Shown here in pieces: positions 7,852 through 40,889 of a stretch of 40,889 bases of DNA. This DNA comes from Gemmatimonadales bacterium (GTDB taxonomy: Bacteria; Gemmatimonadota; Gemmatimonadetes; Gemmatimonadales; GWC2-71-9). Positions within the stretch are counted from its first letter, which is position 1; every line of letters starts with the position of its first letter. The notes below the pieces were generated by a model. The model did no database searches. It saw only the letters and a program-made list of their open reading frames with translations, and was not told the origin of the DNA. The translations under genes and the position numbers were made by a program. The stretch is from contig DASXRM010000030.1 of assembly GCA_036506575.1 (NCBI GenBank), positions 1 through 40,889 on the forward strand, written 5' to 3'.

Positions 7852-7882
7852 AGAGACCATCGCCCGGGAGATGCCGCCGCCG

Positions 7883-8755: not shown

Positions 8756-8758
8756 CCC

Positions 8759-9814
8759 ATGACCCGCGTCGTAGGCATCGACCCGGGCACGGTGAGCATC
8801 GACGTCTGCGGCATTGCGGATGGGCAGCTATACCTGGATCAAAGCTGGCCCACCCAGGAGGCGCTGGCGCGTCCTGATGGCTTCATGCAGCTCCTCACCC
8901 AAGCGGGTCTCCCCGACCTCGTGGCCGGACCTTCCGGGTACGGTCTCCCACTCCTCCGGTCCGCCGAGGTTACCGAGACCGACCTCCGCCTCGCGTTCCT
9001 CGCCGCGCCCGACGAGCCCGGCGGGATCGGCGGCCTGCGGAGCTTCGCCAAACGTCTGGGCGCTTCGGGTCTACCGGTCGTCTATACCCCAGGCGTCATC
9101 CACCTCGATACGGTACCGGACCACCGGAAGATCAACCGGGTCGATCTGGGCACCGCGGACAAGCTGTGTGCCGCCGTACTTGGGATTCATGAGGAATGCA
9201 AACGGCGGGGCTGTCCGCCCGAAGCGGTTTCTTTCATCCTGCTCGAGCTCGGCGGGGCCTTCACGGCCGGAGTGGCGGTCGAGCATGGCCGGGTAGTGGA
9301 CGGAATCGGTGGCACCAGTGGGCCGATCGGTTGGTACGCCGCGGGAGCGCTCGACGGCGAAGTGGCTTTCCTGGCGGGGCAGATCACGAAAGCGGCGCTG
9401 TTCCAGGGCGGCATGCGCTCGCTGGCGGAGCGAGAGCCGTCCCGGGCCGCTATGGCCATGGAGGCGTACATCGAAGGAGCCGCCAAGGCGGCGCGGCAGC
9501 TCCGCGGTTCCGCGCCGTCGGCGGATCGAATCCTGCTTTCCGGACGGAAGGCTGCCGAAGCCGACATCGTCGAGCGGCTGGCTGGAAAGCTGGCCGGGGT
9601 TGGGACGGTGCAGCTTCTCGTCGGCTTTGCCGTCCACGCCAAGCAAGGTGCGCAAGGCGCCGCTCTCGTCGCCGATGGCCTGAGCGGTGGCCGCCACGCG
9701 GCCTTGGTAAATCGGCTGCGGTTGCGGGAGGCGCGGGGGACTGTGCTCGATCATCTGGTATTCATTTCGCCTGCGACTGCACGTCGCCGGCTCGGTCTCA
9801 CGACCAATGGTTGA
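8759..9814 (+). CDS. ASKHA-fold (DUF1464-like) protein of H4MPT/methanofuran gene islands
   Basis: N-terminal 'VVGIDPGTVSIDVCG' is a sugar-kinase/actin-like phosphate-1 motif and 'LLELGGAFTAGVAV' is a second ASKHA motif. Length ~350 aa, embedded between mtdB and fhc genes. Confidence 0.65.
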   Translation: MTRVVGIDPGTVSIDVCGIADGQLYLDQSWPTQEALARPDGFMQLLTQAGLPDLVAGPSGYGLPLLRSAEVTETDLRLAFLAAPDEPGGIGGLRSFAKRLGASGLPVVYTPGVIHLDTVPDHRKINRVDLGTADKLCAAVLGIHEECKRRGCPPEAVSFILLELGGAFTAGVAVEHGRVVDGIGGTSGPIGWYAAGALDGEVAFLAGQITKAALFQGGMRSLAEREPSRAAMAMEAYIEGAAKAARQLRGSAPSADRILLSGRKAAEADIVERLAGKLAGVGTVQLLVGFAVHAKQGAQGAALVADGLSGGRHAALVNRLRLREARGTVLDHLVFISPATARRRLGLTTNG

Positions 9815-10970
9815 CACCAATCGGGGGCATGTGTTGATCGCGGGGACTACCACCCGGGCTCTCGCTGTCTCCGCCGCGCGAGCCGGCTACCGGGTAACGG
9901 CCATAGACGCGTTTGGCGACCGGGATCTTCGCGCCGTGGCAGAGGTGATTCTGGCGCGCCCCAAGCCGGGCCGGAACTACAGTCCGCTCACGGCCGCGGC
10001 AGCCGGAGCGCGCATACCCGCGGAGCTGGTCGCATATACCTCGAATTTCGAGAACTATCCCCATGCCGTGGCCCGATTGTCGGAAGGACGGCGGCTTCTG
10101 GGCAACCCGCCTGACGTGCTCGAGAGAGTTCGGAACCCGATCGAGCTGATGCGCGCCCTTCGGCGGCACGGCCTCCCGTCACCGGAGTCCCGAGCTGGAG
10201 CGCCAGCAGCCGGACCGGGACGCGGTTCCTGGCTCTTGAAGCCCCGCCGGTCCGGTGGTGGTCATGGAGTTAGAGTCTGGCGGCGGGGTGACTCAGTGTC
10301 GCGGAGCCGGTATCTCCAGCGGCGTATCATCGGCATTCCGGGCTCGATCATCTTCGCCGCGAATGGGTCTACTGCGGTGATGCTGGGGTTCTCCCGCCAA
10401 CTGGTGGCCGAACCTCACCTGGGAGCAAAGGGCTTCCGCTACTGCGGCAGCATCCTTGGGACTCTCCAGACCGCCCTCTTCCCCCGGCAGCAGGAGCTGC
10501 TCCGAACGGCGGGCGTGGTCGCTGGGGTCTTGACTCGGGAGTTCGAGCTGACCGGGATCAACGGGATCGATTTCATCGCTCGGGACGGCGTGCCCTACCC
10601 CATTGAGGTGAACCCACGCTACTCAGCATCCATGGAACTGGTCGAGCGGGGTCAGGGCATTTCGATATTTGAAGTGCACGCCCAAGCGTGCCACGGCGTG
10701 CTGTCGGCCGTCCCCGCCCCCGGTGTCATGGTGCAGGGGAAGGCGATCGTGTTTGCTCGACAGGACGTTCGGATCGGCCATTCACCCCAATGGGGTGCCG
10801 ATAGATGGATAGCGGACATACCACACGCAGGCGAGCGGATCCCGCGTAGCCGCCCCATCTGCACTGTATTTGCGGAGGCCGGCAATCCAAATGCTTGCCG
10901 GCGACTCTTGGCCCGCCGGGCCGGGGCAGTCTATCGCGCTCTCGAATCGCGCCAAGGTTGCGCAGCATGA
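9807..10970 (+). CDS. ATP-grasp domain ligase (cofactor biosynthesis; MfnD/ATP-grasp_3-like)
   Basis: N-terminal Rossmann-like 'VLIAGTTTRALAVSAARAGYRVTAIDAFGD'; 'WLLKPRRSGGGHGV'; 'GINGIDFIARDGVPYPIEVNPR' is typical of an ATP-grasp C-domain. There is an 8-nt overlap with the upstream gene and an ATGA overlap with fhcB. Confidence 0.7.
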   Translation: MVDTNRGHVLIAGTTTRALAVSAARAGYRVTAIDAFGDRDLRAVAEVILARPKPGRNYSPLTAAAAGARIPAELVAYTSNFENYPHAVARLSEGRRLLGNPPDVLERVRNPIELMRALRRHGLPSPESRAGAPAAGPGRGSWLLKPRRSGGGHGVRVWRRGDSVSRSRYLQRRIIGIPGSIIFAANGSTAVMLGFSRQLVAEPHLGAKGFRYCGSILGTLQTALFPRQQELLRTAGVVAGVLTREFELTGINGIDFIARDGVPYPIEVNPRYSASMELVERGQGISIFEVHAQACHGVLSAVPAPGVMVQGKAIVFARQDVRIGHSPQWGADRWIADIPHAGERIPRSRPICTVFAEAGNPNACRRLLARRAGAVYRALESRQGCAA

Positions 10971-12241: not shown

Positions 12242-13881
12242 GCCGCCCGACTCAGCTTCGCATAGCCGGTGGGACCGTCTACGATCCCGCGAATCAGGTT
12301 GACGGCGACATTCGCGACGTCTGTGTCGAGGATGGCCGGATCGTCGCGAGCCTGCCGGATGGAGCCCCGAGACTCGAGGCGGGTGGCATGATCGTGATGC
12401 CGGGTGGGGTCGACATCCACTCTCACCTGGCGAGCTCCAGCTGCAACCATGCCCGGCGGCTACTTCCCGAGGAACATGCTGCGGACCCGGTGCCACCGCC
12501 TGATCTTCGCGATGGCTCGAGTCCGAGATCCGGCACGGGAGGTACCGTGCCCAGCACCTTCACCACCGGGTACCGCTACGCCGGCTTGGGATACACCACG
12601 GTATTCGACGCGGCCGTAGCACCGCTCATGGCCCGGCATAGTCACGCCGAGCTGGAGGACACCCCCTGTGTGGACGGCGGGATCTTCGTCCTCCTGGGGA
12701 ATGATGAGTATCTCCTGCGGCAGGTGGCCGCCGGCGAGCGGGAACGGGCTCGAGACTATGCGGGGTGGCTCATCGGTGCCACAGGCGGGTATGCCATCAA
12801 GATCGTAAACCCGGGCGGTGTCGAGGCGTGGAAATCAGGCCAGCGGAACCTGAACGGGCTGGATGACAGCTTGGCCGGGCGCGGGGTCACTCCGCGAGCG
12901 ATTCTGGAGACGCTGGCCGATGCCGGCAACCAGCTGGGTTTGCCCCACCCGGTCCACATTCATTGCAACAACTTGGGGGTGCCGGGGAACGCCGCCGTCA
13001 CGCTCGCCAGCATGCAGGCGCTTGCCGGTCGCCGGGCTCACTTTACCCATCTGCAATTCCATAGCTATGGTGGGCCCGGTTGGAGCTCCGCTGCGTCGAC
13101 CGTGATGGAGTACGTCAACGCGCACCCCGAGGTGAGCGTGGACGTGGGACAGGTGATGTTTGGGCCGGCCACCACGATCACCGCCGATAGTCCGGTTGAG
13201 TACCTGCTGCACAAGAGCAGCGGACGAAAATGGGTCAACATCGACATCGAGTTGGAGACCGGCTGCGGCATCGTTCCGTTTTCCTATAAGGACAAGGCGG
13301 CGGTGTCAGCATTGCAGTGGGCGGTGGGACTCGAGCTGTTCCTTCTGAGTCATGATCCCTGGCGGGCGGTCCTCTCCACCGACCACCCGAATGGCGGGTC
13401 CTTCCTCTCCTATCCGGCTCTCATTCAGCTCCTGATGGATCGGAGCGTGCGCGATGACCGGCTCAAGCAGGTGAACCCCAAGCTGCTGGCGGGGTCCGCC
13501 CTCGCCGACGGGCTCGCGCGCGAGTACACCCTCAACGAGATCGCCATCATCACTCGGGCCGGCCCCGCCCGCCTCCTGGGTCTCGGCCACAAGGGGCACC
13601 TCGGCCCAGGAGCCGACGCCGACATCACGATCTACGTGAGAGATGGGGATATCGCCAAAATGTTCGCGACGCCGCGGTACGTGATCAAGGGAGGTGCACT
13701 GCTGGTCGAAGAGGGTCAGCTACGTCGAGCACCGGCCGGCCGCCGGTTGCATATCCGGCCGAGCTACGACAGCGCGCTGCTACCCGACTTGCGGCGCTAC
13801 TTCGATGCGTACTCGACTGTTTCCTTCGAGAACTATCCGGTCGGAGAGATTCCTGATGATCCAATCCCGATTTCATCCTGA
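12238..13881 (+). CDS. fhcA: Formyltransferase/hydrolase complex subunit A (FwdA-type amidohydrolase)
   Basis: 'IAGGTVYDPANQVDG...DVCVEDGRIVA', 'MPGGVDIHSHL' (metal-binding HxH of amidohydrolases) and 'HIHCNNLG'. ATGA overlap with fhcB. Confidence 0.9.
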   Translation: MSRPTQLRIAGGTVYDPANQVDGDIRDVCVEDGRIVASLPDGAPRLEAGGMIVMPGGVDIHSHLASSSCNHARRLLPEEHAADPVPPPDLRDGSSPRSGTGGTVPSTFTTGYRYAGLGYTTVFDAAVAPLMARHSHAELEDTPCVDGGIFVLLGNDEYLLRQVAAGERERARDYAGWLIGATGGYAIKIVNPGGVEAWKSGQRNLNGLDDSLAGRGVTPRAILETLADAGNQLGLPHPVHIHCNNLGVPGNAAVTLASMQALAGRRAHFTHLQFHSYGGPGWSSAASTVMEYVNAHPEVSVDVGQVMFGPATTITADSPVEYLLHKSSGRKWVNIDIELETGCGIVPFSYKDKAAVSALQWAVGLELFLLSHDPWRAVLSTDHPNGGSFLSYPALIQLLMDRSVRDDRLKQVNPKLLAGSALADGLAREYTLNEIAIITRAGPARLLGLGHKGHLGPGADADITIYVRDGDIAKMFATPRYVIKGGALLVEEGQLRRAPAGRRLHIRPSYDSALLPDLRRYFDAYSTVSFENYPVGEIPDDPIPISS

Positions 13882-21477: not shown

Positions 21478-22076
21478 ACCTGGCGCCTCGATCCACTGGG
21501 TCGATAACCGTAATCAAGATCGGCGGCGGACTCACCGTGGTGTCCGGCGCGCTGGAACGCGTCTGTGCCGCGGTAGCGGAAACCTCCCGGCACCATCGGC
21601 TTCTCGTCGTGCCCGGTGGCGGTCCTTTCGCGGAAGCGGTGCGGGAATTCCAGAGCCGGATCGGTGTGTCCCCGGACGCGGCCCACTGGATGGCAATACT
21701 GGCGATGGACCAGTATGCGCATGTGCTCGCCGACCGGATAGCGGGAGCGGTGCTGATTGAGGATCCCGGAGCGATCTCGGAAGCCGCAACCGTGGGGACG
21801 GTGGCGGTGCTGGCGCCGTCCCGCTGGATGCGATCCGCCGATGCGCTGCCCCACAGTTGGGACGTGACGAGCGACAGTATCGCGGCTTTCGTCGCGGGCG
21901 CCCTGGACGCGGCGCGCCTGATTCTGATTAAGCCGGCCCAGCTGGCCGATTCAGTCGATCCCTACTTCGCGACCGCGCTCCCGGCCGGGATGTCATGCCA
22001 GATCATTGGATACGATCAGGTCGAGCAGCTTGCCCTGCGACTCACCGCGCCGACCGCTGCCGCCGGATCGGGCTAG
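21474..22076 (+). CDS. Amino-acid-kinase-family protein (aspartate/glutamate/uridylate kinase fold) of H4MPT islands
   Basis: 'ITVIKIGGGL' and 'LLVVPGGGPFAEAVR'. ATGA overlap with the upstream gene. Confidence 0.72.
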   Translation: MNLAPRSTGSITVIKIGGGLTVVSGALERVCAAVAETSRHHRLLVVPGGGPFAEAVREFQSRIGVSPDAAHWMAILAMDQYAHVLADRIAGAVLIEDPGAISEAATVGTVAVLAPSRWMRSADALPHSWDVTSDSIAAFVAGALDAARLILIKPAQLADSVDPYFATALPAGMSCQIIGYDQVEQLALRLTAPTAAAGSG

Positions 22077-25000
22077 GAGCCGAGGAGGGCTTGCGGACCA
22101 AGTGATCCAGGAAGCGATCGGCCGGCACCGGACGTCCGACCAGGTAGCCTTGCACCTCATCGCACCCCTGCTTCTGTAGCAGCGTGAGGTGCGCCTCAGT
22201 TTCGACCCCTTCGGCAATGACCCTCAGACCCAGCGCATGTCCCAGGGCGATGATCGCCGTGGTAATGGCGGCGTCGTCGGGCTGAATGGCGATCTCCCGG
22301 ATAAACGAGCGGTCGATTTTAAGGGTGTCCAGCGGGAAGTGTTTCAGGTAGCTGAACGAGGAGTAGCCGGTTCCGAAGTCGTCTACCGCAAGGTGGAGAC
22401 CCATGGCGCGGAGCGCGTGCAACGCGTCGGTCCCTTCGCGCTGGTGGTTGACGAGCACACTCTCGGTGAGCTCGAGGCCGAGATATCGCGGCTCGAGCCC
22501 GCTCATCTGCAAGGCGCGGCCGATGGTGCCGGTCAAGCTGCGCTTGAGCTGCCGGCTCGACAGATTGACCCCGACTCGGATGCGCGGAAGCCCGGCATCC
22601 TGCCACGTCCGGTTCTGCAAACAGGCACTCTGCAGAACCCACTCACCCATGGGAACGATGAGGCCGTTCTCTTCCGCGATTGGGATGAACTCGGACGGAA
22701 GCAGGAGGCCCAGCTCGGGATGGCGCCAGCGTAACAGCGCCTCGGCCCCCACGACGGTGTTGGTGTACGCGTCCACGATCGGCTGATAGTGCACCTCAAG
22801 TTCGTTCCGTTCGAGCGCCCTCCGGAGATCGTTTTCCAGGGTCATCCGTTGCAGCGCGGTGGTCGTCATCGACTTGGAGTAGGTCTGATAGCTGCTGCCC
22901 CCCTGCTCCTTCGCCTTGTACATGGCGGTGTCCGCGTGCATCAGCAGGGTGTCGATGTCCTCACCATCGTAGGGGTAAATGGCAATCCCGATGCTGGCGT
23001 TGATGAAGATCTCGTGGGTCCCGACCCGCACCGGGTGGGCAAAGCTGGACAGGATCCGCCGGGCGAGCTTCGCCGCATCCTGGGCGTCATGCAGGCCGGG
23101 CATGATGACGGTGAACTCGTCTCCTCCGAGACGTGCCACCTCGGGAGCTAACGTGGTGAGCGCCGGCCCCACCTCGTCTTCCCGCTCCCGGCAGCAGGAG
23201 CGGAGACGGGACGCGACGTGCCGGAGGAGCTGGTCTCCCACCTCATGACCTAGCGTGTCGTTGATGCGACTGAAATGGTCCAGGTCGATGAAGAAGGCCG
23301 CCACGAGTTGTTGATTGCGGCCCGCCTGTTCCAGGGCATAGGCCAGGCGTTCTTTGTAGGATAGACGGTTAGGCAAACCGGTCAGGCTATCGTAGTAGGC
23401 CAGCTCGCGGACCTGCTCCAGCATCCGTGCGTTGGCGAGCGCAACGGCCGCCTGGTCCGCCAGGCGGCGCATCTGAACCCGGTCCTCCTCGGTGGGGACC
23501 AGATCGAACCGTTCGCCCAGGGCGACAATACCTGATAATTGTCGCTGATACGAGAGCGGCAGAACCACAAAAGAGGTCGTTCCCAGTTGGGCCAGGGGAG
23601 CGAGATAGGTGGGCACCCTCTCGCCGGTGCGGAGGACAAACACCTCGGGACCTATTAACAGTGCCTGAACGTCGGCCGCGTGTAGCCGGATCCGCTCGAT
23701 ATGGCGATCGCCCTTCTCATAATCCTGGATGACACTGGCTACCGACTTGGCCCCGTTCGGTATACTGAGGGTCACGCTCACCATGCTGCAGGGAAAGACG
23801 TCCCGGATTCGGCTAATAACAGTGTCCACGATGGCGGTGGCGTCGGTCGCTGAGAGCACCGCACGATCGATCTCGGCTGCGGTGGCGAGCGCCTTGAACT
23901 GGCGGCCGAGTTGGGTGGCCATGGTGTTAAAGGAGGTCGCGAGCTGCTCGAACTCGTCCCGGCTGGTCACTGTCACCCGGCTGGTGAAGTCTCGCTGGGC
24001 AATACGCTGGGTTCCCTTCTGCAGCTCCTCGAGTGGCAGCACACTCCGGCGGATCTGGCTCAAACTGAGAAGAAGGACGGCCAGACTGGAAAGTCCCATC
24101 ACGATGAGAAACGTGTTGGTGAACTCCACCATGGGCTCGAGCACTTCGTCCTTGGACTCGCTGAACAGAACCGTCCAGGGTTGCGCGGCGAACGCGGCAT
24201 CCAGCCTGACGGCGGCGGCGGCGGTCAGATAAAATTCTCGGGAGGTCGCCGCCGTGGTATCGAGCGCTGCTACGCCCGGTCTACTCGAAACCTTTTCTAC
24301 CGGAAGCGGTGTCTTGACCGTGCTGAAGAGCACGTGGGCGGAGTCGTCCAGGACCGCTACCCGGGTCGTCGGGGACGGGACGGTCTCCTCCACTGTGCCC
24401 CACAGATACTCGGGACTCACCTCACCGACGATCGTGCCCCGCACCTCCCCACGGCGGACCAGACGGCGCAACAGATAGACTCGCGCTTGCTCGTCTTCGC
24501 CATGCACCACGGAGATGAGCGGCAACCCGAGCCGCAGATCGGAGCTGTCTCGAGTAGATAAACTGGGACGGTGGGAGAGGCGGCCGAAGACTTCGATCCC
24601 CTTTCCGTCATCGCCGATGAACTGGACGGCAACGAATCGCTGGCGCGCGAGCAGGTCGAGCCCGGTGATCAGCGCTTTGCTGGCCTCGATCAGGTCGGCG
24701 CGCTGCCGGTTTCCCGTGGCGAGTGATCTAGGATCTCGATCGAGAATGATGCCGCCCATCGCCAGCCGCCCATCCAGCGATCCCGCCTGAGTCTGATTCC
24801 CCGGCTTCGGTAGCGGGGGCCGCTTCGGGGTTGTAGCAGCCGGGGGTAATCGTTTGGCGGCGTCGAGCTGGAGAATGGCGCTCGGAGGAATGCTCTTCAG
24901 CGTGGCATCCAGCAGCAGGAGGCGCTCGAAGACCGCCTGCGCCAGGGACCGGGTGGCCTGCTGCAGCCCGTTCTCGCGCTGACGATAGAGCTGTTGCTTC

Positions 25001-25116
25001 ACGTGCCGGTAGGAGAGTACGGCGAGAAGCGCCATGGGAAGCAGGGCGCAACCCACGAACAACACCAAGAGCCGACGCCCGAACCTGCTCCGTAGCGGTG
25101 TGGACGGAAAAGTCAC
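22042..25116 (-). CDS. Membrane sensor with periplasmic domain, HAMP, GAF-like, GGDEF and EAL domains (c-di-GMP turnover)
   Basis: TM 'LLVLFVGCALLPMALLAVL', a ~300-aa extracytoplasmic segment, then a second TM 'FLIVMGLSSLAVLLLSL'. HAMP 'LEELQKGTQRIAQRDFTSRV...FNTMATQL'. Intact 'RLGGDEFTVIM' and intact 'EALLRWRHPELG ... DDFGTGYSS'. GTG start at 25116. Confidence 0.88.
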   Translation of the reverse strand: MTFPSTPLRSRFGRRLLVLFVGCALLPMALLAVLSYRHVKQQLYRQRENGLQQATRSLAQAVFERLLLLDATLKSIPPSAILQLDAAKRLPPAATTPKRPPLPKPGNQTQAGSLDGRLAMGGIILDRDPRSLATGNRQRADLIEASKALITGLDLLARQRFVAVQFIGDDGKGIEVFGRLSHRPSLSTRDSSDLRLGLPLISVVHGEDEQARVYLLRRLVRRGEVRGTIVGEVSPEYLWGTVEETVPSPTTRVAVLDDSAHVLFSTVKTPLPVEKVSSRPGVAALDTTAATSREFYLTAAAAVRLDAAFAAQPWTVLFSESKDEVLEPMVEFTNTFLIVMGLSSLAVLLLSLSQIRRSVLPLEELQKGTQRIAQRDFTSRVTVTSRDEFEQLATSFNTMATQLGRQFKALATAAEIDRAVLSATDATAIVDTVISRIRDVFPCSMVSVTLSIPNGAKSVASVIQDYEKGDRHIERIRLHAADVQALLIGPEVFVLRTGERVPTYLAPLAQLGTTSFVVLPLSYQRQLSGIVALGERFDLVPTEEDRVQMRRLADQAAVALANARMLEQVRELAYYDSLTGLPNRLSYKERLAYALEQAGRNQQLVAAFFIDLDHFSRINDTLGHEVGDQLLRHVASRLRSCCREREDEVGPALTTLAPEVARLGGDEFTVIMPGLHDAQDAAKLARRILSSFAHPVRVGTHEIFINASIGIAIYPYDGEDIDTLLMHADTAMYKAKEQGGSSYQTYSKSMTTTALQRMTLENDLRRALERNELEVHYQPIVDAYTNTVVGAEALLRWRHPELGLLLPSEFIPIAEENGLIVPMGEWVLQSACLQNRTWQDAGLPRIRVGVNLSSRQLKRSLTGTIGRALQMSGLEPRYLGLELTESVLVNHQREGTDALHALRAMGLHLAVDDFGTGYSSFSYLKHFPLDTLKIDRSFIREIAIQPDDAAITTAIIALGHALGLRVIAEGVETEAHLTLLQKQGCDEVQGYLVGRPVPADRFLDHLVRKPSSAPSPIRRQRSAR

Positions 25117-32819: not shown

Positions 32820-32848
32820 TTGACAGTTCATTTTTCAGGGTGTATACT
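32820..32848 (+). promoter_or_regulatory. Near-consensus sigma70 promoter immediately after the mptG stop
   Basis: TTGACA (32820-32825), 17 nt spacer, TATACT (32843-32848). It lies ~655 nt upstream of the xoxF ATG. Confidence 0.55.
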
Positions 32849-33505
32849 GCCCGTCTAAGCCTTCCGTAATCGGCCACTTGGCAGGCCTCGAGAAGGGCTC
32901 GGCCGGGCCTCTCGCGTTGACCTGCCCCCTGCGGCGAGGACCGGAGAACGCTGCGGCGGCATCACCATACGAGGGCATGCTGCCTCCCCAACGGTAGTTT
33001 TTTACTGGCACACAAAGGGTTCGGCGGCGCCCCTGAGGAATGTGATGGGCTTGTTCCGGTTCGCTGGAATCGTCTCTTCGATGCTCAATCCGCTGTGGGT
33101 CGGCGGAGCTGGGAGCCGTTGGCAGGAAGTCCTGTGGCGGCGCCATGTCTCCTCGATGCGCCAGTGCAAGTCTCTCGAAGTTCCTTCCCTGCTCGCTCCC
33201 CAGTCCCTGTTTCCAACTCGCGCGATCAACTCCCAAGCTTCGGATCGCGCTTCCCAATCCATCCAGCGGGCCTCCTTCACTCGTAGACGTACCGGGACCG
33301 CAAGCACGCTCCGCCGGTGGATGCTCCCGACAGTCGAGCGCGGGCCTCCGGTCCCCAGCGGCGTTTGAACCTCGGTCCTGTAGTCCTGGCCCGAGCCGGC
33401 TCTCGTGGTAGACGAGCCCCGTTCGCCACCAGATCTCTAGTAACCGCAGAGCGTAACACGGAATGGAAGTCAGTAGGAGAATCACCCTTTTCCCTGAGGT
33501 CAGTT

Positions 33506-35323
33506 ATGAACCGTTTTGCGCAGAAGGTAGTGTCTGGCGGGCTCGCCGCGGGGCTTTCGGTAGCCGTGGCGTTGTCGGCCAGCGCCCAACAGGCACGGTC
33601 AGGGGCATGGACCCTGAATGCGCCCGAGGGCGAATGGCACATGACCGGTCGTGATTACAGCCTGCAGCGGTTCAGCCCGCTCAAGCAGATCACGACGTCG
33701 AACGTGGCCGAGCTCCGGCCCGTCTGGTCGTTCTCGACCGGGACGCTTCGGGGGCACGAGGGCAACCCGCTCGTCATCGGCAACGTGATGTACGTGCACA
33801 CGTCCTTCCCCAACATCGTGTACGCGCTCGACCTCTCCAAGCCCGGCGCGCCGATGATCTGGAAGCACGTGCCCAACCAGTCGCCCGACGCGATTCCTAT
33901 CGCCTGTTGCGACCTGGTGAACCGGGGCACGGCGTATCACCCGAGCGGCAAGATCTTCATTCAGTTGCTCCAGGGTGAGCTGCTCGCGCTCGATGCCAAG
34001 ACCGGTAAGGAGCTGTGGAAGGTGAAGAATGCCGACTACAAGCAGGGCTCCACGATGACCAACGCCCCGATCGTGATCAAGGACATCGTCATCGCCGGCA
34101 TTTCGGGTGGTGAGTTCGGGGTCCGCGGCCGGGTGACGGCGTACAACGTGAACGACGGGAAAGAAGTCTGGCGCGGCTATAGCACCGGGCCGGACAGCGA
34201 AGTCCTCCTCGAGGGCGACGCCAACCCGAATTATCCGTCCCACCGGGGCAAGGACCTTGGGGTCTCGACCTGGCAGGGCGACGAATGGAAGCGGGGCGGC
34301 GGCACCACCTGGGGCTGGTACTCCTACGACCCCGAGCTGAACCTCTTCTATTACAGCACCGGGAACCCGGGCACCTGGAATCCTGACCAGCGGCCGGGCG
34401 ACAACAAGTGGTCCATGACCATCTTCGCCCGCAATCCGGACAACGGGAAGGTGAAGTGGGCCTACCAGATGACGCCCCACGATGAGTGGGACTACGATGG
34501 CGTCAACGAGAACGTCCTGTTCGAGCAGGGCGGGAAGAAGCTGTTGGCGCACTTCGACCGGAACGGCTTCGGCTATACCCTCGACCGGACCACCGGCAAG
34601 GTCCTCGTCGCCCAGCCCTATGGTCCAGTCAATTGGGCCAAGCGGGTTGACCTGACGACCGGCGTGCCGGAAAAGGATCCGAAGTACGGCACCACCTCGA
34701 AGAAGAACACCGAGGGCATCTGCCCGGCGGCGATCGGCTTCAAGGATCAGCAGCCGGCGGCCTACTCGCCGCAGACTGGCCTCTTCTACGTCCCGGCAAA
34801 CCACATCTGCATGGACTATGAGGGCGTCGAGGTGAAGTACACCGCTGGTCAGCCGTACGTCGGCGCGATCGTGCGGATGTTCCCGGGCCCGGGCGGGCAC
34901 CGGGGCAACTTCATCGCCTGGGACCCGATGAAGGGCAAGGCGGTGTGGTCGAACAAGGAGAACCTCGCGGCCTACGGCGGGGCGCTCACCACGGCGGGCG
35001 GACTGGTCTTCTACGGCACCATGGAAGGCTGGCTCAAGGCGCTTGACCAGAAGACCGGCAAGAGCCTGTGGCAGTTCAAGACCCCGTCGGGCATCATCGG
35101 CAACCCGATGACCTACAACGGTCCCGATGGCCAGCAGTACGTGGCCGTGCTCTCGGGCATCGGTGGTTGGGCCGGTATCGGCGTGGCCGCCGGCATCGGC
35201 GCCGAAGATCCCACTGCCGGTCTGGGCGCGCTGGGCGCGTTCGGCGACGCGGGGAACTTCAGCAACCAGGGTGGCGTCTTGACCGTCTTCGGGCTCAAGA
35301 ACCCGAGCACGGGAAAGATGTAG
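33506..35323 (+). CDS. xoxF: PQQ-dependent methanol/alcohol dehydrogenase, XoxF (lanthanide) type
   Basis: Signal peptide MNRFAQKVVSGGLAAGLSVAVALSASAQQ. Vicinal Cys 'IACCDLVNRG' (33905-33910). 'HDEWDYDGVNE' carries the D-Y-D signature (34490-34498) where Ca-MxaF has an Ala in place of the second Asp. Eight-bladed W-rich propeller sequence. GAGG lies 6 nt before ATG 33506; track start 33317 is rejected. Confidence 0.92.
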   Translation: MNRFAQKVVSGGLAAGLSVAVALSASAQQARSGAWTLNAPEGEWHMTGRDYSLQRFSPLKQITTSNVAELRPVWSFSTGTLRGHEGNPLVIGNVMYVHTSFPNIVYALDLSKPGAPMIWKHVPNQSPDAIPIACCDLVNRGTAYHPSGKIFIQLLQGELLALDAKTGKELWKVKNADYKQGSTMTNAPIVIKDIVIAGISGGEFGVRGRVTAYNVNDGKEVWRGYSTGPDSEVLLEGDANPNYPSHRGKDLGVSTWQGDEWKRGGGTTWGWYSYDPELNLFYYSTGNPGTWNPDQRPGDNKWSMTIFARNPDNGKVKWAYQMTPHDEWDYDGVNENVLFEQGGKKLLAHFDRNGFGYTLDRTTGKVLVAQPYGPVNWAKRVDLTTGVPEKDPKYGTTSKKNTEGICPAAIGFKDQQPAAYSPQTGLFYVPANHICMDYEGVEVKYTAGQPYVGAIVRMFPGPGGHRGNFIAWDPMKGKAVWSNKENLAAYGGALTTAGGLVFYGTMEGWLKALDQKTGKSLWQFKTPSGIIGNPMTYNGPDGQQYVAVLSGIGGWAGIGVAAGIGAEDPTAGLGALGAFGDAGNFSNQGGVLTVFGLKNPSTGKM

Positions 35324-35386
35324 TTCCCGTAATCCGGTAGGGACGGAGGCTCCCCTCCGGCCTCACCGGGGGTAGATTACAAAAAT

Positions 35387-35430
35387 GAGAGCGGCGTCGG
35401 GGTGCGGTTCGCTCCGGCGCCGTCTCTTTT
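35387..35430 (+). terminator. Possible attenuator/terminator between xoxF and xoxJ
   Basis: Stem GAGA(G)CGGCG (35387-35396) / CGCCGTCTC (35418-35426) with one bulge and a 21-nt loop, followed by TTTT (35427-35430). Confidence 0.35.
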
Positions 35431-35493
35431 CGGGGTCACACCGGCCGCGCGACGGTCCGGCCGGGACACCCCCAAGCCGACGGCGGCCTACCC

Positions 35494-36420
35494 ATGCTAC
35501 GGGATTTCAGACATCTGTATCGCGGCCCCGCCCTGGCGGGTCTGGCGACGCTGGCGCTGGCGATGCCGGCGCGAGCCCAGCGTCCGGCGCCCTTGCAGCC
35601 GGGGATCCTCCGGGTGTGTGCCGACGCGGACAACCTGCCCTTCTCCAACCAGAAGGGCGAGGGCTACGAGAACAAGATCGCCGAGCTGATCGCCAAGTCT
35701 TGGGACTCGAAACTCGAATACGTGTGGTGGCCGATTCGCCGGGGCTATTTCCGCGTGTTGAACGGCATGTATTGCGACGTCATAATCGAATCGCCCGCGG
35801 GGCTCGACATGGCAGGCTCCACCAAGCCGTACTACCGGTCAGGCTACATGTTCGTGAGCCGGAAAGGCAGCGGCCTCGAGGACATCAACTCGCTCGCCGA
35901 CCCCCGGCTCAAGAAGCTTAGGATCGGGGTCAATCTGTTCGTCTCCTCCGACGGCGAGCACTCCCCGCCGGAGATGGCTCTCAGCAGATACGGCGTGGTC
36001 GGCAACCTTAAGGGCTATGACACCTCATATGACGAAAACATTCGGCCCGAAGACATCATCAACGGAGTCGCGAAGAAGGACGTGGATCTGGCGATCGTAT
36101 GGGGCCCGATGGCCGGCTACTTCGTGAACAAGTCGCCGGTGCCGCTGGTGCTCACGCCGATCGCCGCCGAGGTGGACTCGGCAAGCGGCTATCCCATGCA
36201 GTACAACATCGGTATGGCCGTGCGACGTCGGGACCGCGCGCTCAGCGACAGCCTTAATACCCTGATCGACCGCAAGCGCCCCGAGATCCAGTCCATACTC
36301 AAGGAGTACGGCGTTCCCCTCCTCCCCATCCTGCCGGAGGCGGGTGAGGGCGACAAAGCCAAGGTGACGGCACCCACGAAACCCACGCCTGCTGACTCGG
36401 GACGCCCGGCCAAGCGTTAG
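35494..36420 (+). CDS. xoxJ: XoxJ/MxaJ-type periplasmic substrate-binding-like protein associated with quinoprotein dehydrogenases
   Basis: Signal 'LAGLATLALAMPARAQ'. 'LRVCADADNLPFSN', 'YENKIAELIA' and 'YYRSGYMFV' show the family-3 SBP fold typical of MoxJ-like proteins. Position directly after xoxF. Confidence 0.82.
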   Translation: MLRDFRHLYRGPALAGLATLALAMPARAQRPAPLQPGILRVCADADNLPFSNQKGEGYENKIAELIAKSWDSKLEYVWWPIRRGYFRVLNGMYCDVIIESPAGLDMAGSTKPYYRSGYMFVSRKGSGLEDINSLADPRLKKLRIGVNLFVSSDGEHSPPEMALSRYGVVGNLKGYDTSYDENIRPEDIINGVAKKDVDLAIVWGPMAGYFVNKSPVPLVLTPIAAEVDSASGYPMQYNIGMAVRRRDRALSDSLNTLIDRKRPEIQSILKEYGVPLLPILPEAGEGDKAKVTAPTKPTPADSGRPAKR

Positions 36421-36482
36421 CCGCGCCCAGGTCGCCTCGGCCATTGCCACTCAGTCAGGTTAGAGAGGATCCCTTCCCGAGC

Positions 36483-36899
36483 ATGGACAGGACTATGCGA
36501 GGTGTTTCCGTCATCCTGGGGCTCTGCGTAATCAGCTCCAAGCTTACGGCGCAGCAGCTCCGGGATCAGTATCACCAGGCTCCCCGAGACACGGTGTCGC
36601 AGGAGGTCTACGATGGCTGGAAGCAGTTCAATCTCAACTGCGCACGATGTCACGGAGAGGACGTCCAGGGGACGACCATCGCCCCCCATCTGATCCTTTC
36701 CCTCAAGCCTGACGGTCCGATCAACACCAAGGAGCTTTTCATTCAGACGGTGTGCGCCGGGCGGCCCGCCAAGGGCATGCCTTCCTGGTGCGCCTTGGGA
36801 GTGGAACTGCCGACCATCGAGAAGATCTACACGTACGTGAAGGGCCGCAGTGATGCCAAAATCGGCCCCGGCCGGCCGGCGGTGAAACCGGGTACCTAG
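36483..36899 (+). CDS. xoxG: Mono-haem c-type cytochrome (XoxG/cytochrome cL-like electron acceptor)
   Basis: Signal 'MRGVSVILGLCVISSKLTAQQ' and a single haem motif 'CARCH'. Position after xoxJ. Start is 36483, 36495 or 36444, so uncertain. Confidence 0.75.
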   Translation: MDRTMRGVSVILGLCVISSKLTAQQLRDQYHQAPRDTVSQEVYDGWKQFNLNCARCHGEDVQGTTIAPHLILSLKPDGPINTKELFIQTVCAGRPAKGMPSWCALGVELPTIEKIYTYVKGRSDAKIGPGRPAVKPGT

Positions 36900-36900
36900 C

Positions 36901-38184
36901 ATGGTCTCTCACCTGGCCTTCGCCCCCGTGCTCTGCCTGTTCGCTGCGATCACGCCTTACCCGACCGCTCCGGTCCGGGTATCGCAATCCCGGGAGCCCC
37001 TCGCGTTGTTCCCGGTGGCGTTCTACGGGAAAGGCGCCAATTCCCTGGAGCAACGGGACCCCCTGGTCGCGGCCATGACCGATGGCATCCTGCGATCAGA
37101 GCTCGAGCGGTCGGGGAGGTTCGAGTTGATGAATCCCGCGCGGCTGGCCAAAGCGCTCGCGGACACCGAGGCGGGTGGTATAGAGTGCGTCACGCTGGAG
37201 TGCCGGCGGACGCTGAGCAGGAAGTTGGGAGCGGCTTGGATGGTGACCGCCAAGCTGAGCAAGACCAGCAATCTGATCTGGTACCTCTCCGGACAACTGA
37301 CTGATGTCGCTACCGGACGCCGTCTTCTCGATGACGAATTCGAGTTGAAGGGCATTGCGGAAGACATTGCCAAGGGCGGCGCCCACTCGCTCGCGAGGCG
37401 GATCACTAACGCCGCAACGACCGTTGTCACGGTGGACACGCCGATCACCAAGATGAATCTGGCGCAGCTGAAGTCGAAGCTGGCTGCAGCGACCGGCGAT
37501 AACCCTCCTGATCTGAGCAAGGTGGACCTGAGCGGCCTCGACCTGAGCGGCGTCGACTTCAAGCGGGCGAATCTCACCGGGGCCCGCCTGGTCGGCACCA
37601 AGCTCGTCGGGGCCAACCTGTTCACTGTCGATCTTACCGACGCGGTGCTGTCCGATGCTGATCTGTCCCGGGCCAACCTCGACGGAAGCATCCTTCGGCG
37701 AGCCAACTTCCAGCGGGCCAACCTCGAGGGTGCCAGCCTCTTTGCTACCATTATCGAATCGGCCGACCTCACCAGCGCCAACTTGGCCGGCGCTCGAATC
37801 ATCGGCTACCTGCGCGGAGCCAAGCTGGGGGGTGCCAGCCTCCGCCACGCCAATGCGGGGGCCGATCCCGGAAATCAATCCATGGGTGTCATGCGAGCCA
37901 CCTTCGTGGGCGCCGATCTGAGTGGGGCAGATCTGTCCGATGCCAACCTTTTCAAGGCGGACCTGTCGCACGCCAATCTCACCAACGCGAAGCTGGCTCG
38001 CGCCAATCTGATGAACGCAGACCTGATTCAGGCTGACTTGACCCGGGCGGACCTTACCGGGGCCAAGCTGGCCAAGGCCAACATTGACGATGCCATCTTT
38101 ACTCACGCCGTCGGGGTGGATCGTATTCAGGGGCTCGATCAGGTTCGCAATCGCGAAAGGGCGATCTTCGATGCTTCCAAATGA
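36901..38184 (+). CDS. Exported fusion protein: LpoB/TolB-N/CsgG-like small domain + long pentapeptide-repeat (A(D/N)LXX) domain
   Basis: Hydrophobic N-terminus 'LAFAPVLCLFAAI'. The N-domain runs 'LALFPVAFYG...LVAAMTDGILRSELERSGRFELMNPARLAKAL...KLGAAWMVTAKLSKTSNLIWYLSGQLTDVATGRRL'. It is followed by ~40 pentapeptide units such as 'ANLTGARLVGTKLVGANLFTVDLTDAVLSDADLSRANLDGSILRRANFQRANLEGASL...'. The ATG is 1 nt after the xoxG stop. Confidence 0.8.
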   Translation: MVSHLAFAPVLCLFAAITPYPTAPVRVSQSREPLALFPVAFYGKGANSLEQRDPLVAAMTDGILRSELERSGRFELMNPARLAKALADTEAGGIECVTLECRRTLSRKLGAAWMVTAKLSKTSNLIWYLSGQLTDVATGRRLLDDEFELKGIAEDIAKGGAHSLARRITNAATTVVTVDTPITKMNLAQLKSKLAAATGDNPPDLSKVDLSGLDLSGVDFKRANLTGARLVGTKLVGANLFTVDLTDAVLSDADLSRANLDGSILRRANFQRANLEGASLFATIIESADLTSANLAGARIIGYLRGAKLGGASLRHANAGADPGNQSMGVMRATFVGADLSGADLSDANLFKADLSHANLTNAKLARANLMNADLIQADLTRADLTGAKLAKANIDDAIFTHAVGVDRIQGLDQVRNRERAIFDASK

Positions 38185-38301
38185 CATTGGCGAAGTCGAT
38201 GTCATCCTGAGACCCTGCCCCGAGCACAGCGAGGGGGAGCGTAGCACCCGAAGGATCCCTCAACCGGGAACGGAGAGGTTCTTCGCGCTCAGAATGACAT
38301 T
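38181..38301. repeat. Nested palindromic (REP-like) intergenic element of the GTCATYCTGAG...CTCAGAATGAC type
   Basis: Outer pair GTCATCCTGAG (38201-38211) / CTCAGAATGAC (38288-38298). Inner pair CGAAGGATCCCTC (38249-38261) / GAGAGGTTCTTCG (38273-38285), 10/13 complementary. Extra hairpin ATGACAT (38181-38187) / ATGTCAT (38199-38205). The left half carries a 37-nt insertion. Confidence 0.8.
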
Positions 38302-39373
38302 CCTAACGATCACGATTCTCCTTGCCTCCGCCTGCGGGAAGGAGCGGCCCTCCCTCGGCGGGCGGGCGGATACCGCCGCTCCCTCGACGGCGCCCGCGGC
38401 TGCCTCTTCCGGTGAGCTGGCCTACGTCACCAACGAAGACTCCCAGGAGTTGAGCGTCATCGACACCCGGACGGACAGTCTGATCGCGACTATTCCGGTG
38501 GGTACCCGCCCGCGGGGCGTCAAGGTGAGCCCGGATGGCCGCACCGTGTATGTCGCTCTCAGCGGATCGCCCAAATGCCCGCCGAGCATGCCCGACGAGG
38601 AGTGCGAAAAGCTGAAGGCCGATAAGAGCAAGGACGGAATCGCCGAGGTCGACGTCCGCGCCCGCCGGGTCCGGCGGGTGCTGCCGGGCGGCTCCGACCC
38701 GGAGCAGTTCGATATCTCGCGCGACGGCATGCGACTGTACATCTCGAACGAAGATGCCGGAACGGCCTCACTGGTCGACGTGAAGAGTGGAACCATCGAT
38801 ACCACGGTTCGGGTGGGAGCGGAGCCGGAGGGTGTGCGCCTCAGCCCCGATGGGAAGCTGGTCTACGTCACGGCTGAGAGCGACACCTCGATTAGAGTGC
38901 TGGACGCGGCGACCGGTCGAGTCAACGCCCGGATAAAGGTGGATCGCCGTCCCCGCGATGTGGCGTTCACTCCGGACGGCAAGCTCGCGTATGCTACCGC
39001 GGAGGTGGGGGGGAGTGTGTCCGTCATCGATGTGGCCGGCAACCGCGTGATCGCCAGGATTCAGCTCCCCCCGGATGCGAAGCCGATGGGAGTGCGGGTT
39101 TCCCCCGATGGCAAGCGGGTGTACGTGGCTACCGGTCGGGGAGGCACCGTCGTGGTGATCGATCCTGCCACGAACAAGGTCGTCGGGTCGGTCAAAGTGG
39201 GACAGCGCCCCTGGGGTATCGCGCTGACGAGCGATGGGAAGAAGCTCTATACCGCTAACGGGCCGTCCAACGATGTGACCGTCGTCGACACCGACAAGCT
39301 CCAGGCGATCAAGACGATCCCGGTCGGAAAGATCCCCTGGGGAGTAGCGATCGGACCAGCACCAGGCTCGTGA
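38294..39373 (+). CDS. YVTN-repeat beta-propeller lipoprotein (PQQ-dependent catabolism-associated beta-propeller type)
   Basis: 'MTFLTITILLASAC' is a probable lipoprotein signal. Repeated 'P(R/E)GV(K/R)(V/L)SPDG(R/K)xVYV(A/T)' blades and 'YVTNEDSQELSVID'. Track start 38084 overlaps the upstream gene and is rejected. Confidence 0.8.
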   Translation: MTFLTITILLASACGKERPSLGGRADTAAPSTAPAAASSGELAYVTNEDSQELSVIDTRTDSLIATIPVGTRPRGVKVSPDGRTVYVALSGSPKCPPSMPDEECEKLKADKSKDGIAEVDVRARRVRRVLPGGSDPEQFDISRDGMRLYISNEDAGTASLVDVKSGTIDTTVRVGAEPEGVRLSPDGKLVYVTAESDTSIRVLDAATGRVNARIKVDRRPRDVAFTPDGKLAYATAEVGGSVSVIDVAGNRVIARIQLPPDAKPMGVRVSPDGKRVYVATGRGGTVVVIDPATNKVVGSVKVGQRPWGIALTSDGKKLYTANGPSNDVTVVDTDKLQAIKTIPVGKIPWGVAIGPAPGS

Positions 39374-39383
39374 GGCAACAGTC

Positions 39384-39884
39384 ATGAACGTCCGACCACC
39401 CTGGCTGGCTGCGGCGGCGTTGCCGCTGCTCCTGGCCGCCGACGCTTCGGGGCCGGTTCCCAGCACCTTTCAGTTCGACGCCGATGCCCGGCCCGAGCTT
39501 CATCGACTCTGGGACGTCAGCTCGGCGGCAAAGGCCGAGCGGGTCGCCTGTCTGGCGGCTACGATCGAGGGCGATACCGTCCGAATCTCGCGCGTGCTCC
39601 CACTCGAGCCGGGCCGGGCGGACTCGCTAGGCATATCGGCGGGTGCCTCGCTCGACAGTTGCGGCCCACCTGAGTGGCTGGGCACCGTGCACACTCACGT
39701 GGCGCTTCGAGACGGTCAGCGGCCCTACTCTCTGTTCTCGGGAGCCGATCGAGGGGTCATGATGCTGTGGTGGAGACGCTGGAAGGTCGACGGGATCTTC
39801 TGCTTGCTTTACAGCGGGGAGGAAGTGATCTGCGAGATCGAGGGACCGGGCGGTGCCGTGCTCTTCCCCCGCTCGCACTACTGA
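39384..39884 (+). CDS. Exported JAMM/MPN+-like metalloprotein, paralog 1
   Basis: Signal 'WLAAAALPLLLAADA'. 'ERVACLAATIEGDTVRISRV' (E-x-x-C/G-x-L), 'GTVHTH' (HxH) and 'FSGADR' (S-x-x-D). Four Cys conserved with paralog 2. Starts 10 nt after the propeller gene. Confidence 0.6.
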   Translation: MNVRPPWLAAAALPLLLAADASGPVPSTFQFDADARPELHRLWDVSSAAKAERVACLAATIEGDTVRISRVLPLEPGRADSLGISAGASLDSCGPPEWLGTVHTHVALRDGQRPYSLFSGADRGVMMLWWRRWKVDGIFCLLYSGEEVICEIEGPGGAVLFPRSHY

Positions 39885-39889
39885 CCGGC

Positions 39890-40402
39890 ATGAGACCGTC
39901 GGCTATCCTTGGTCTTCTGCTCGTCGCGGCTTCCGCCGCACCGCTGGCAGCACAGAGCGAAGGCGGCCGCCCCCGAGCAGCCTTTCGCTTCAGCGCTGAA
40001 GCAGGTACCGCGCTCCGCGAGCTATGGCAAACGAGCGTCGCCGCCAAGGAGGAGCGAGTGGCCTGTCTGGCAAGCACGATCCGGAACGACACCGTTTTCG
40101 TCACCCGAATCGCGGCGCTGGAGCCGGAGGACGCGGACTCGATGGGAATTTCCGCCACCGGCTCGGTGGACCGGTGCGGACCTCCCGCCTGGTCGGGTAC
40201 GGTTCACACCCACATCGCGCTCTACACCGACGACCTGCCCTCCACCAGGTTTTCCGCTCAAGATCGGACGGCAATGCGGCTGTGGTACGATCGCTGGCAC
40301 GCCGATGGCGTCTTCTGCCTGATCTACAGCAGGCACGACGCCCATTGTGAGGCCGATGGGGTGGTTGGTGGGATGCGGGCAACGCCCAGGATTGTTCGCT
40401 AG
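39890..40402 (+). CDS. Exported JAMM/MPN+-like metalloprotein, paralog 2
   Basis: Signal 'MRPSAILGLLLVAASAAPLAAQS'. 'ERVACLASTIRNDTVFVTRI', 'GTVHTH' and 'FSAQDR'. About half the residues are identical to paralog 1 by eye. ATG 39890 lies 5 nt after paralog 1; track start 39674 overlaps it and is rejected. Confidence 0.6.
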   Translation: MRPSAILGLLLVAASAAPLAAQSEGGRPRAAFRFSAEAGTALRELWQTSVAAKEERVACLASTIRNDTVFVTRIAALEPEDADSMGISATGSVDRCGPPAWSGTVHTHIALYTDDLPSTRFSAQDRTAMRLWYDRWHADGVFCLIYSRHDAHCEADGVVGGMRATPRIVR

Positions 40403-40458: not shown

Positions 40459-40889
40459 TCATCGTACCACGACGGTCGCCTTCATGAACGGGTGCAGCGT
40501 GCAGTGATAGCTGTAGGTGCCAGCACGGTCGAAGGTGTGGCGCCAGACTCCGTCAGAATTGATCACCCCGGAATCAAAGCTGTTGTCGTCACCGGTCACT
40601 GTGTGGGGGACTTGATCTTGATTGCTCCACGCGATCGTGGCGCCGGTGGCGACTTCCAGCTTGGAGTCCGTATACGCCATGCTGCGGATCACTGTTGGCA
40701 CTAGTCTCTCCTCGTTGGACGGCCTGGGAGGTGCTGCTCTCGGACGAGGTGCGCGTCGTCCAAAGTAACGCGCCAGCGTGAACGGAACGGTGAACTCGAA
40801 GCCATAGCGCACTTGGTCGCCGCCCCGGGAGGAGCCCTCGAGCGTCGCGGTGTTGGTATTTGATGCTTGGAGAGAAAAGGTGTGGGGGG
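40459..40889 (-). CDS. Cupredoxin (plastocyanin/amicyanin-like blue-copper) domain protein; reading frame stays open to the window end
   Basis: C-terminal domain 'LEVATGATIAWSNQDQVPHTVTG...GTYSYHCTLHPFMKATVVV' has the His...Cys-x2-His-x2-Met copper ligands. Possible starts are GTG 40812 or ATG 40680, but the same frame continues without a stop to 40889 ('...TFSLQASNTNTATLEGSSRGGDQVRYGFEFTVPFTLARYF'), so the N-terminus may lie outside the window. Confidence 0.65.
   Translation of the reverse strand, partial: PHTFSLQASNTNTATLEGSSRGGDQVRYGFEFTVPFTLARYFGRRAPRPRAAPPRPSNEERLVPTVIRSMAYTDSKLEVATGATIAWSNQDQVPHTVTGDDNSFDSGVINSDGVWRHTFDRAGTYSYHCTLHPFMKATVVVR

Follow-up and report, generated by a model that had tools for sequence, protein, structure and literature searches.

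A Probable Periplasmic XoxF Methanol-Oxidation Module in Gemmatimonadota: A Conserved Five-Gene Core and a Lineage-Variable Family of Candidate Exported JAMM-Fold Proteins

The DNA considered here is a window of 40,889 nt from the genome of a soil-dwelling, uncultured member of the Gemmatimonadales (contig DASXRM010000030.1; assembly GCA_036506575.1), in which positions 33506-40402 hold an array of seven genes led by xoxF. This region is likely to constitute a periplasmic module for methanol oxidation by XoxF, embedded in a one-carbon (C1) island, with a pentapeptide-repeat protein (PRP), a β-propeller lipoprotein and two small paralogous proteins, named J1 and J2 (collectively J), as its accessories. 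The five genes xoxF-xoxJ-xoxG-PRP-propeller make up a near-universal core in the phylum; the J genes are a lineage-variable add-on to this core. The novelty of the locus lies in the J proteins, an exported family of predicted JAMM fold, and in the fusion of a DUF3280 domain to the pentapeptide repeats of PRP. It does not extend to the complete set of accessory genes, which the original prediction, made from the letters of the window, had taken to look undescribed; homologues of two of its members, PedD and PedA2 (PMC12997753) and their Ruegeria counterparts, were already known.

Organisation of the Locus

The seven open reading frames all lie on the plus strand and point in the same direction, with coordinates identical to those first proposed:

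33506 to 35323, plus strand: xoxF; TIGR03075 at 695.5 bits against a cut-off of 480.05, Pfam PQQ at 204.9 bits; signal peptide.
35494 to 36420, plus strand: xoxJ; MoxJ-like protein of periplasmic binding-protein fold, TIGR03871 at 268.1 bits against a cut-off of 212.15.
36483 (or 36495) to 36899, plus strand: xoxG; c-type cytochrome with a CxxCH haem motif, two further Cys and a signal peptide.
36901 to 38184, plus strand: PRP; signal peptide, DUF3280 TolB-N-like domain (about residues 30-176), linker helix and pentapeptide β-helix (about residues 200-405).
38294 to 39373 (alternative start 38171), plus strand: propeller; YVTN β-propeller lipoprotein of the 'PQQ-dependent catabolism-associated' type, PQQ being pyrroloquinoline quinone.
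39384 to 39884, plus strand: J1; putative exported protein of JAMM/MPN+ fold, from an unnamed family, assigned by motif and fold.
39890 to 40402, plus strand: J2; paralogue of J1, starting 5 nt past the J1 stop codon.

Five of these identities follow from family assignment, as had been proposed; the JAMM-like character of the other two products is a matter of motif and fold and is backed by no hidden Markov model (HMM). XoxF contains both the vicinal Cys134-Cys135 pair and the D329-Y-D331 triad, which we take to be the signature of a lanthanide-type dehydrogenase, with an extra Asp two residues past the catalytic Asp; by these residues and its family score, the protein is classed as a lanthanide-type PQQ methanol/ethanol dehydrogenase. 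The xoxG product displays a CARCH haem motif and a C...C pair, VCAGRPAKGMPSWC, that can be read directly in the sequence; its matches to Pfam Cytochrom_C (21.4 bits) and Cytochrome_CBB3 (26.6 bits) are weak, and its position is conserved among the loci of related genomes.

Export signals were judged by eye from the N-termini of the predicted proteins. A hydrophobic N-terminal stretch is found in each of the seven, in line with the claim that all are exported, and an A-x-A-type site is visible in five; the propeller carries the lipobox LLASAC, and LLASAC, LISC, LFGC and LTAC are encountered across this protein and its orthologues. The signal of PRP is the weakest of the seven in this genome, yet it is typical of the consensus of PRP orthologues; residues 1-28 have a predicted local distance difference test (pLDDT) score below 50 in the AlphaFold2 (AF2) model of the protein. 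All products look periplasmic, and the description of the set as a periplasmic one is thus retained.

The tight spacing reported for the array is exact at three junctions, with 1 nt separating xoxG from PRP, 10 nt the propeller gene from J1 and 5 nt J1 from J2; it does not extend to xoxF and xoxJ, which are 170 nt apart with a GC-rich hairpin inside the spacer, nor to PRP and the propeller gene, which are 109 nt apart. In public gene calls, the start of the propeller gene is placed at 38171, where it overlaps PRP, instead of at 38294. Neither a Walker A motif nor an LSGGQ motif occurs in the six frames of the whole window, which confirms that genes for an ATP-binding cassette (ABC) transporter are absent from it, as first noted.

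Upstream of xoxF, the window contains mtdB-like, fhcA/B, mch, β-RFAP synthase, pabAB, MfnE/F-like and 4HFCP synthase genes; the xox cluster thus sits inside a tetrahydromethanopterin (H4MPT)/methanofuran C1 island. A Gemmatimonadetes methanol-utilisation contig on which xoxF is linked with H4MPT-pathway genes is described in Butterfield et al. 2016 (PMC5103831), and the C1 island of the window matches that contig.

Gene Order across the Gemmatimonadota

Two sets of loci were compared. The first is centred on xoxF and consists of the 80 closest species representatives, nearly all labelled Gemmatimonadota, whose XoxF proteins are 75-98% identical to that of the window; 64 of these loci are usable. 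The five-gene order xoxF-xoxJ-xoxG-PRP-propeller is present in 63 of the 64 (PRP in 63, propeller in 63), and xoxJ lies directly 3' of xoxF in every usable locus. The J genes are distributed differently: two copies are found in 35 of these loci, one copy in 8 and none in 21. The second set is centred on J and comprises 74 non-redundant loci, 70 of them from species-representative genomes and 4 from metagenome assemblies; counts were taken over the 45 loci with at least 6.5 kb of upstream flank. On the same strand upstream of J, these 45 loci contain xoxF in 38 cases, xoxJ in 38, xoxG in 37, a pentapeptide domain in 35 and the propeller in 31. All genome matches of J belong to Gemmatimonadota, with the exception of a few short, oddly binned contigs.

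The adjacency of J to the module survives both the rearrangement of its flanks and the divergence of J itself down to 35-40% identity; recurring in dozens of species-level genomes, the arrangement is far beyond chance. The neighbourhood comparison advocated in the original prediction, which gave a lack of synteny with xoxF in any relative as grounds for its refutation, was thus carried out and finds the four downstream genes syntenic with xoxF in many relatives; on this ground, therefore, the refutation fails.

Loci of the Gemmatimonadaceae type depart from this layout in having no propeller and in having the H4MPT-biosynthesis genes inverted downstream. Some Gemmatimonadaceae also place J in a second context within the C1 island (L042/L043 at 5582-10549, and L044-L046; L numbers designate individual loci of the comparison), made up of a divergent DoxD-like gene, a stand-alone DUF3280 gene, a TonB-dependent receptor, two small open reading frames of 51 and 135 aa and an ABC transporter. 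Between this receptor and the one from a Sphingobium PQQ island there is 36% identity; the second context may serve lanthanide uptake, along the lines set out for such clusters in bioRxiv 10.64898/2026.07.10.737718. Elsewhere, the 3' end of the xox module is repeatedly flanked by a gene for a DoxX/DoxD-like membrane protein (L076 at 9342-9869, minus strand; L135 at 13299-13853), in lineages with and without J alike.

The order of the core is subject to occasional insertions and losses. In L142-L145 (around 12570-13050), L065 and L074, a second xoxG-like cytochrome gene, whose product is lipoprotein-like in L143, lies between PRP and the propeller gene. A 1.4 kb insert separates the propeller gene from J1 in L004 (8539-9993) and also in L008 and L009; its product, as read in L004, resembles, by eye, a methyltransferase of the cyclopropane-fatty-acyl-phospholipid-synthase type, and it was set aside as an unrelated insertion rather than a module gene. 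At L052 (7079-8029), whose xoxF is 59% identical, a gene for a PedA1-like ABC substrate-binding protein stands directly 5' of the propeller gene; no xoxG or PRP was detected at that position, and the J gene is still there.

J1 and J2, an Exported Family of Predicted JAMM Fold

J1 and J2 are 54% identical over 136 residues (E = 2e-50), J2 keeping the E, HTH and SAQD elements and the four Cys of its paralogue. The family to which they belong is small, with 112 relatives among 1.84 billion cluster representatives; across 43 diverse members, E52, H103, H105, S119, D122 and the four Cys are invariant. The motif of JAMM metallopeptidases has the form E...H-[ST]-H...S-x-x-D, with a canonical spacing of 7 residues between HxH and SxxD; its counterpart in J is E...HTH-x13-S-x2-D.

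The AF2 model of J1 (pLDDT 82.3, predicted template modelling score 0.76) places these residues in a JAMM-like setting: the Glu follows helix 1 and precedes the next strand, the HxH element ends a strand and SxxD opens the following helix. Submitted to Foldseek against the PDB, this model retrieves MPN/JAMM proteins in all of its top 50 matches (probability 1.0, TM 0.43-0.57), CSN5, Rpn11, BRCC36 and the archaeal Rpn11 homologue being among them; in a search of a viral library, JAB-domain phage proteins come out on top. In comparison with the JAMM/MPN+ proteases known from Rpn11, CSN5, BRCC36 and the prokaryotic and phage JAB proteins, the model of J thus shares the fold and presents the Glu, H-T-H and S-x-x-D elements at equivalent secondary-structure positions; in contrast to them, J is exported according to its N-terminus, has four invariant Cys and spaces HxH and SxxD by 13 rather than 7 residues. 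Its sequence resembles no solved MPN protein to a detectable degree; a profile search with the J family found none among PDB sequences, and Prok-JAB (PF14464) gives a faint match (E = 0.005) in 1 of the 43 members.

Taken together, motif and predicted fold, and not any HMM, support a JAMM-like assignment of J1 and J2, and the two proteins are probably periplasmic zinc-dependent hydrolases. Their signal peptides and four invariant Cys fit a periplasmic, disulfide-bonded protein, which is, to our knowledge, unusual for the MPN fold. Prokaryotic JAB systems offer another contrast, as J has no ubiquitin-like gene nearby and is found instead in the context of a periplasmic dehydrogenase. A literature search for JAMM proteins linked to methanol dehydrogenase found nothing; as judged from these searches and from the distribution of its genes, the exported JAMM family is undescribed and is restricted to Gemmatimonadota and to the methylotrophy island of this phylum.

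The C-termini of the core proteins show lineage-specific features of their own. XoxF ends in a KNxxxxK-type tail (around 35297-35320 in the window) that is confined to two-J lineages, most one-J and no-J Gemmatimonadales XoxF proteins ending in ...TVFSL or ...TVFGL and Gemmatimonadaceae loci having a different short tail. This KNxxxxK tail was considered as a mark of a J substrate and rejected: it is absent from most one-J lineages and, because it tracks two-J lineages only, gives no clean signal. The C-terminal tail of XoxJ (around 36370-36420 in the window) is of low complexity and, in many loci, features a P-[AS]-D-[ST]-x-R motif, exemplified by PADSGRAAKP; this motif turns up in Gemmatimonadales lineages irrespective of J and is lacking in Gemmatimonadaceae.

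The Pentapeptide Protein and the Propeller as Companions of PQQ Dehydrogenases

PRP reaches 47.6 bits on Pfam DUF3280 (PF11684; cut-off 30.1) and 153.7 bits on Pentapeptide (PF00805), besides a weak match to TIGR02800. Its AF2 model (pLDDT 82.4) consists of an α/β N-terminal domain and a β-helix; the Foldseek matches of this model are headed by pentapeptide proteins, with TolB following at ranks 48-50 (E ~4e-5, ~150 aligned columns). The propeller scores 217.5 bits on the YVTN repeat model TIGR02276 and is 35-39% identical to proteobacterial propellers that adjoin PQQ dehydrogenases, homologues in this position being found in Methylorubrum, Sphingobium and Ruegeria.

The best-described point of comparison is the ped cluster of Pseudomonas (PMC12997753), which comprises PedE/PedH, the cytochrome PedF, the MoxJ-like PedG, the exported pentapeptide protein PedD and the TIGR03866 propeller PedA2. 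A pentapeptide protein and a β-propeller are thus present in both systems, the likeness of PRP to PedD (P. putida PP_2673) being taken from the description in that review and not from sequence (PMC12997753). The present locus differs from the ped cluster in forming one co-directional, xoxF-led array, in the N-terminal TolB-N-like DUF3280 domain of its PRP, in lacking a PedA1/PedB/PedC-type ABC transporter within the window and in the addition of two JAMM-fold genes. The lack of an adjacent ABC transporter is not peculiar to it: a propeller beside a PQQ dehydrogenase with no such neighbour is also found on Sphingobium pSRL2, and on proteobacterial plasmids, where the propeller accompanies a PQQ dehydrogenase, a binding protein and PedF, an ABC transporter adjoins them in some cases only.

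A second comparison is provided by the XoxF5 island of Ruegeria sp. AD91A (plasmid NZ_CP031947.1), which has xoxF, xoxG, xoxJ, a YVTN propeller and a pentapeptide protein in common with the window. Over residues 178-422 of PRP (255 aligned positions), the two pentapeptide proteins are 38% identical, and they share a non-repeat NQSMGxMR loop and a C-terminal N-x-[DE]-R-A-I element (NRERAI here, NLDRAI in Ruegeria). The Ruegeria island additionally contains SoxYZ-like carriers, quinoprotein relay zinc metallohydrolase 2, a CXXCW protein, PepSY, an ABC transporter and pqq genes; it has neither a JAMM gene nor a DUF3280 domain. It is the only informative case among the plasmid pentapeptide matches obtained by tblastn, the others being mostly unrelated, with irrelevant contexts in Azospirillum and Skermanella; the N-terminal domain of PRP found no match on plasmids by the same method. 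The Ruegeria island is also the sole proteobacterial island examined for DUF3280, and within it the fusion is absent; the gene adjoining its pentapeptide gene was ruled out on inspection as a split-off DUF3280 domain.

Conversely, the extra components of the proteobacterial islands were sought in Gemmatimonadota: by tblastn with Ruegeria and Sphingobium queries, no SoxYZ-like carrier, relay hydrolase of the metallo-β-lactamase (MBL) type, CXXCW protein, rhodanese or PepSY was found in 160 loci covering 2.39 Mb, the window among them; searches of these xox neighbourhoods do bring up the pentapeptide protein and the propeller. Since PRP and the propeller have homologues in the ped and XoxF5 islands, they are not new; going by these homologies, they are known companions of PQQ dehydrogenases that Gemmatimonadota share with Proteobacteria.

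Earlier accounts of Gemmatimonadetes xox loci (PMC5103831) and of XoxF3 systems (Voutsinos et al. 2024, PMC10875860), in the portions available, describe xoxF, xoxJ, xoxG, a maturation protein, NRAMP and small hypothetical proteins, and mention a YncE-type or 'PQQ-associated' propeller in their clusters; the pentapeptide fusion and the JAMM-fold family are not described in those portions.

Transcription Signals

Two candidate signals were noted in the DNA around xoxF:

32820 to 32848, plus strand: sigma-70-like promoter candidate, TTGACA-17 nt-TATACT, agreeing with the consensus at 11 of 12 positions.
35391 to 35423, plus strand: GC-rich hairpin in the xoxF-xoxJ spacer, whose stem of 14 pairs includes 10 G-C pairs and precedes CTCTTTTCGG.

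Some 660 nt separate the promoter candidate from the start codon of xoxF downstream of it, leaving a long leader (32849-33505) in between; neither the two hexamers nor their flanks vary among 7 Gemmatimonadales relatives. The leader holds conserved blocks, such as GGTGGATGCTCCCGACAGTCGAGCGCGGGCCTCC near 33312-33345; it shows no excess of structure over shuffled sequence (z = +1.5) and no match to Rfam.

Most of 49 loci have a hairpin of -29 kcal/mol or lower at the same position of the spacer, its sequence varying from locus to locus, and compensatory changes are seen in 8 of its 10 consensus pairs. The energy alone is weak evidence, given that shuffles of the spacer average -24.7 (standard deviation 3.6). 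The hairpin is likely to be a partial terminator or attenuator, or else a stem-loop that stabilises the transcript; its conservation at this place suggests that read-through is attenuated and that the array is not co-transcribed evenly. We infer that it may set a high ratio of XoxF to the accessory proteins, by holding the xoxF transcript above the level of the accessory genes.

Weighing the Module and the Roles of J1 and J2

In the proposed module, XoxF would oxidise methanol in the periplasm, the electrons then passing to the cytochrome, and XoxJ would help the cofactor loading of apo-XoxF. PRP and the propeller would serve as periplasmic accessory factors, as is thought for PedD and PedA2, with the propeller anchored to the membrane. 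The part in metal insertion, maturation or scaffolding that the original prediction suggested for the accessory set is conjectural. J1 and J2 would act as disulfide-stabilised periplasmic zinc hydrolases; the peptide or isopeptide bond that they cut would belong to some component of the apparatus for methylotrophy or lanthanide uptake, or to a substrate tied to that apparatus. We advance tentatively, as one possibility, that J forms a class of JAMM/MPN+ metallopeptidases new to science and peculiar to Gemmatimonadota, exported and stabilised by disulfides, which matures or regulates a periplasmic component of lanthanide-dependent methanol oxidation, be it XoxF, XoxJ, PRP or a lanthanide-uptake protein.

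A number of findings weigh against this picture. Regarding the core, the xoxG product attains 35.1 bits on TIGR03874, so far below the cut-off of 161.75 that the gene is named by position only, and the propeller, with 273.8 bits on TIGR03866, falls just under the cut-off of 287.3. All loci come from one phylum, and their synteny may therefore be in part inherited rather than selected. Regarding J, its genes are missing from a third of the close xoxF loci (21 of 64), and a few of them (L036, L078) have no xox gene nearby; in Gemmatimonadaceae, a DoxD-like gene on the minus strand lies between PRP and J, which makes J its own transcription unit there; and the two contexts of J have the same pab genes downstream, so that they are not fully independent evidence. 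J1 and J2 match no model of Pfam, NCBIfam or PHROG, the JAB models included, and the 13 residues that separate HxH from SxxD depart from the canonical motif. No ubiquitin-like partner gene is found near J, nor is there a gap in the module that would fit another gene. Finally, when lineages that possess J are set against those that lack it, the C-terminal ends of XoxF, XoxG, XoxJ, PRP and the propeller give no hint of a J substrate. Of the seven-gene unit originally proposed, the five-gene core thus stands; the loci that lack J, the intervening DoxD-like gene and the hairpin after xoxF speak against one invariant unit of seven.

These findings lend themselves to an alternative that we consider unlikely, and that survives better than the others, in which the J genes are functionally unrelated passengers, for instance cell-envelope or periplasmic proteases, kept at the 3' border of the module through shared ancestry. 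The loci in which J is absent and the rest of the module intact, the separate transcription unit of Gemmatimonadaceae, the J copies away from xox genes and the pab genes common to both contexts would all be expected of passengers. However, J keeps to the methylotrophy island despite its divergence and the inversion of its flanks; in the lineage of the window, J1 and J2 follow at 10 nt and 5 nt, so close that their translation should be coupled to that of the propeller gene; and the J family is tiny and has not been seen in bulk in other genomic settings.

A second alternative regards J1 and J2 as non-homologous analogues of zinc metallohydrolases 1 and 2 of the 'quinoprotein relay system', acting at a step that involves a carrier or a cofactor. 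Genes for MBL-type zinc metallohydrolases do lie next to the pentapeptide or propeller genes in proteobacterial PQQ dehydrogenase and XoxF5 islands, both systems have two paralogous hydrolases, and these enzymes, along with the SoxYZ-like carrier, the CXXCW protein and rhodanese, went undetected in the 2.39 Mb of Gemmatimonadota neighbourhoods. The parallel is nonetheless one of position and metal chemistry alone; no SoxYZ-like carrier or other candidate substrate is found near J, and a third of the loci have neither type of hydrolase, which leaves this explanation improbable.

Known lanthanide sites are carboxylate-rich. A role of J as periplasmic zinc- or lanthanide-binding or chaperone proteins, whose E/H/H/D site would hold metal for XoxF, draws on the association of J with XoxF and, in the second context, with a putative metal-uptake cluster (TonB receptor and ABC transporter) whose receptor resembles the Sphingobium one, and on the small periplasmic lanthanide cargo proteins proposed by such receptors (bioRxiv 10.64898/2026.07.10.737718), but is likewise improbable, as the two-His plus Asp site is of the zinc type and the catalytic Glu and the Ser of JAMM enzymes are also invariant, which argues for catalysis over metal storage.

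Neighbouring Genes

Two further genes of the window lie outside the module:

40459 to 40812, minus strand: amicyanin-like cupredoxin, TIGR02657 at 54.5 bits, below the cut-off of 110.
22042 to 25116, minus strand: large GGDEF-EAL (cyclic di-GMP) signalling protein, embedded in the C1-pathway island.

The cupredoxin gene is convergent with J2 and is present only on the contig copy of the window itself, not in related loci; because its position is not conserved in relatives, it was rejected as a member of the module and is probably just a neighbour.

Significance

Gemmatimonadota XoxF is among the abundant methanol dehydrogenases detected in a proteome of grassland subsoil (PMC5103831), and the maturation of XoxF and the supply of lanthanides outside Proteobacteria are poorly known (PMC10875860). 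The present analysis sets out the conserved five-gene xox core of the phylum and singles out one new element, the exported family of predicted JAMM fold. As the PRP and propeller genes are shared with the XoxF5 and ped islands, they emerge as general partners of PQQ dehydrogenases. Elsewhere, JAMM chemistry is known from ubiquitin-like systems of the cytoplasm and from phage tails; should J1 and J2 prove to be metallopeptidases of the kind tentatively proposed here, this chemistry would have been recruited to the periplasm, where it might replace the zinc hydrolases of the proteobacterial quinoprotein relay.

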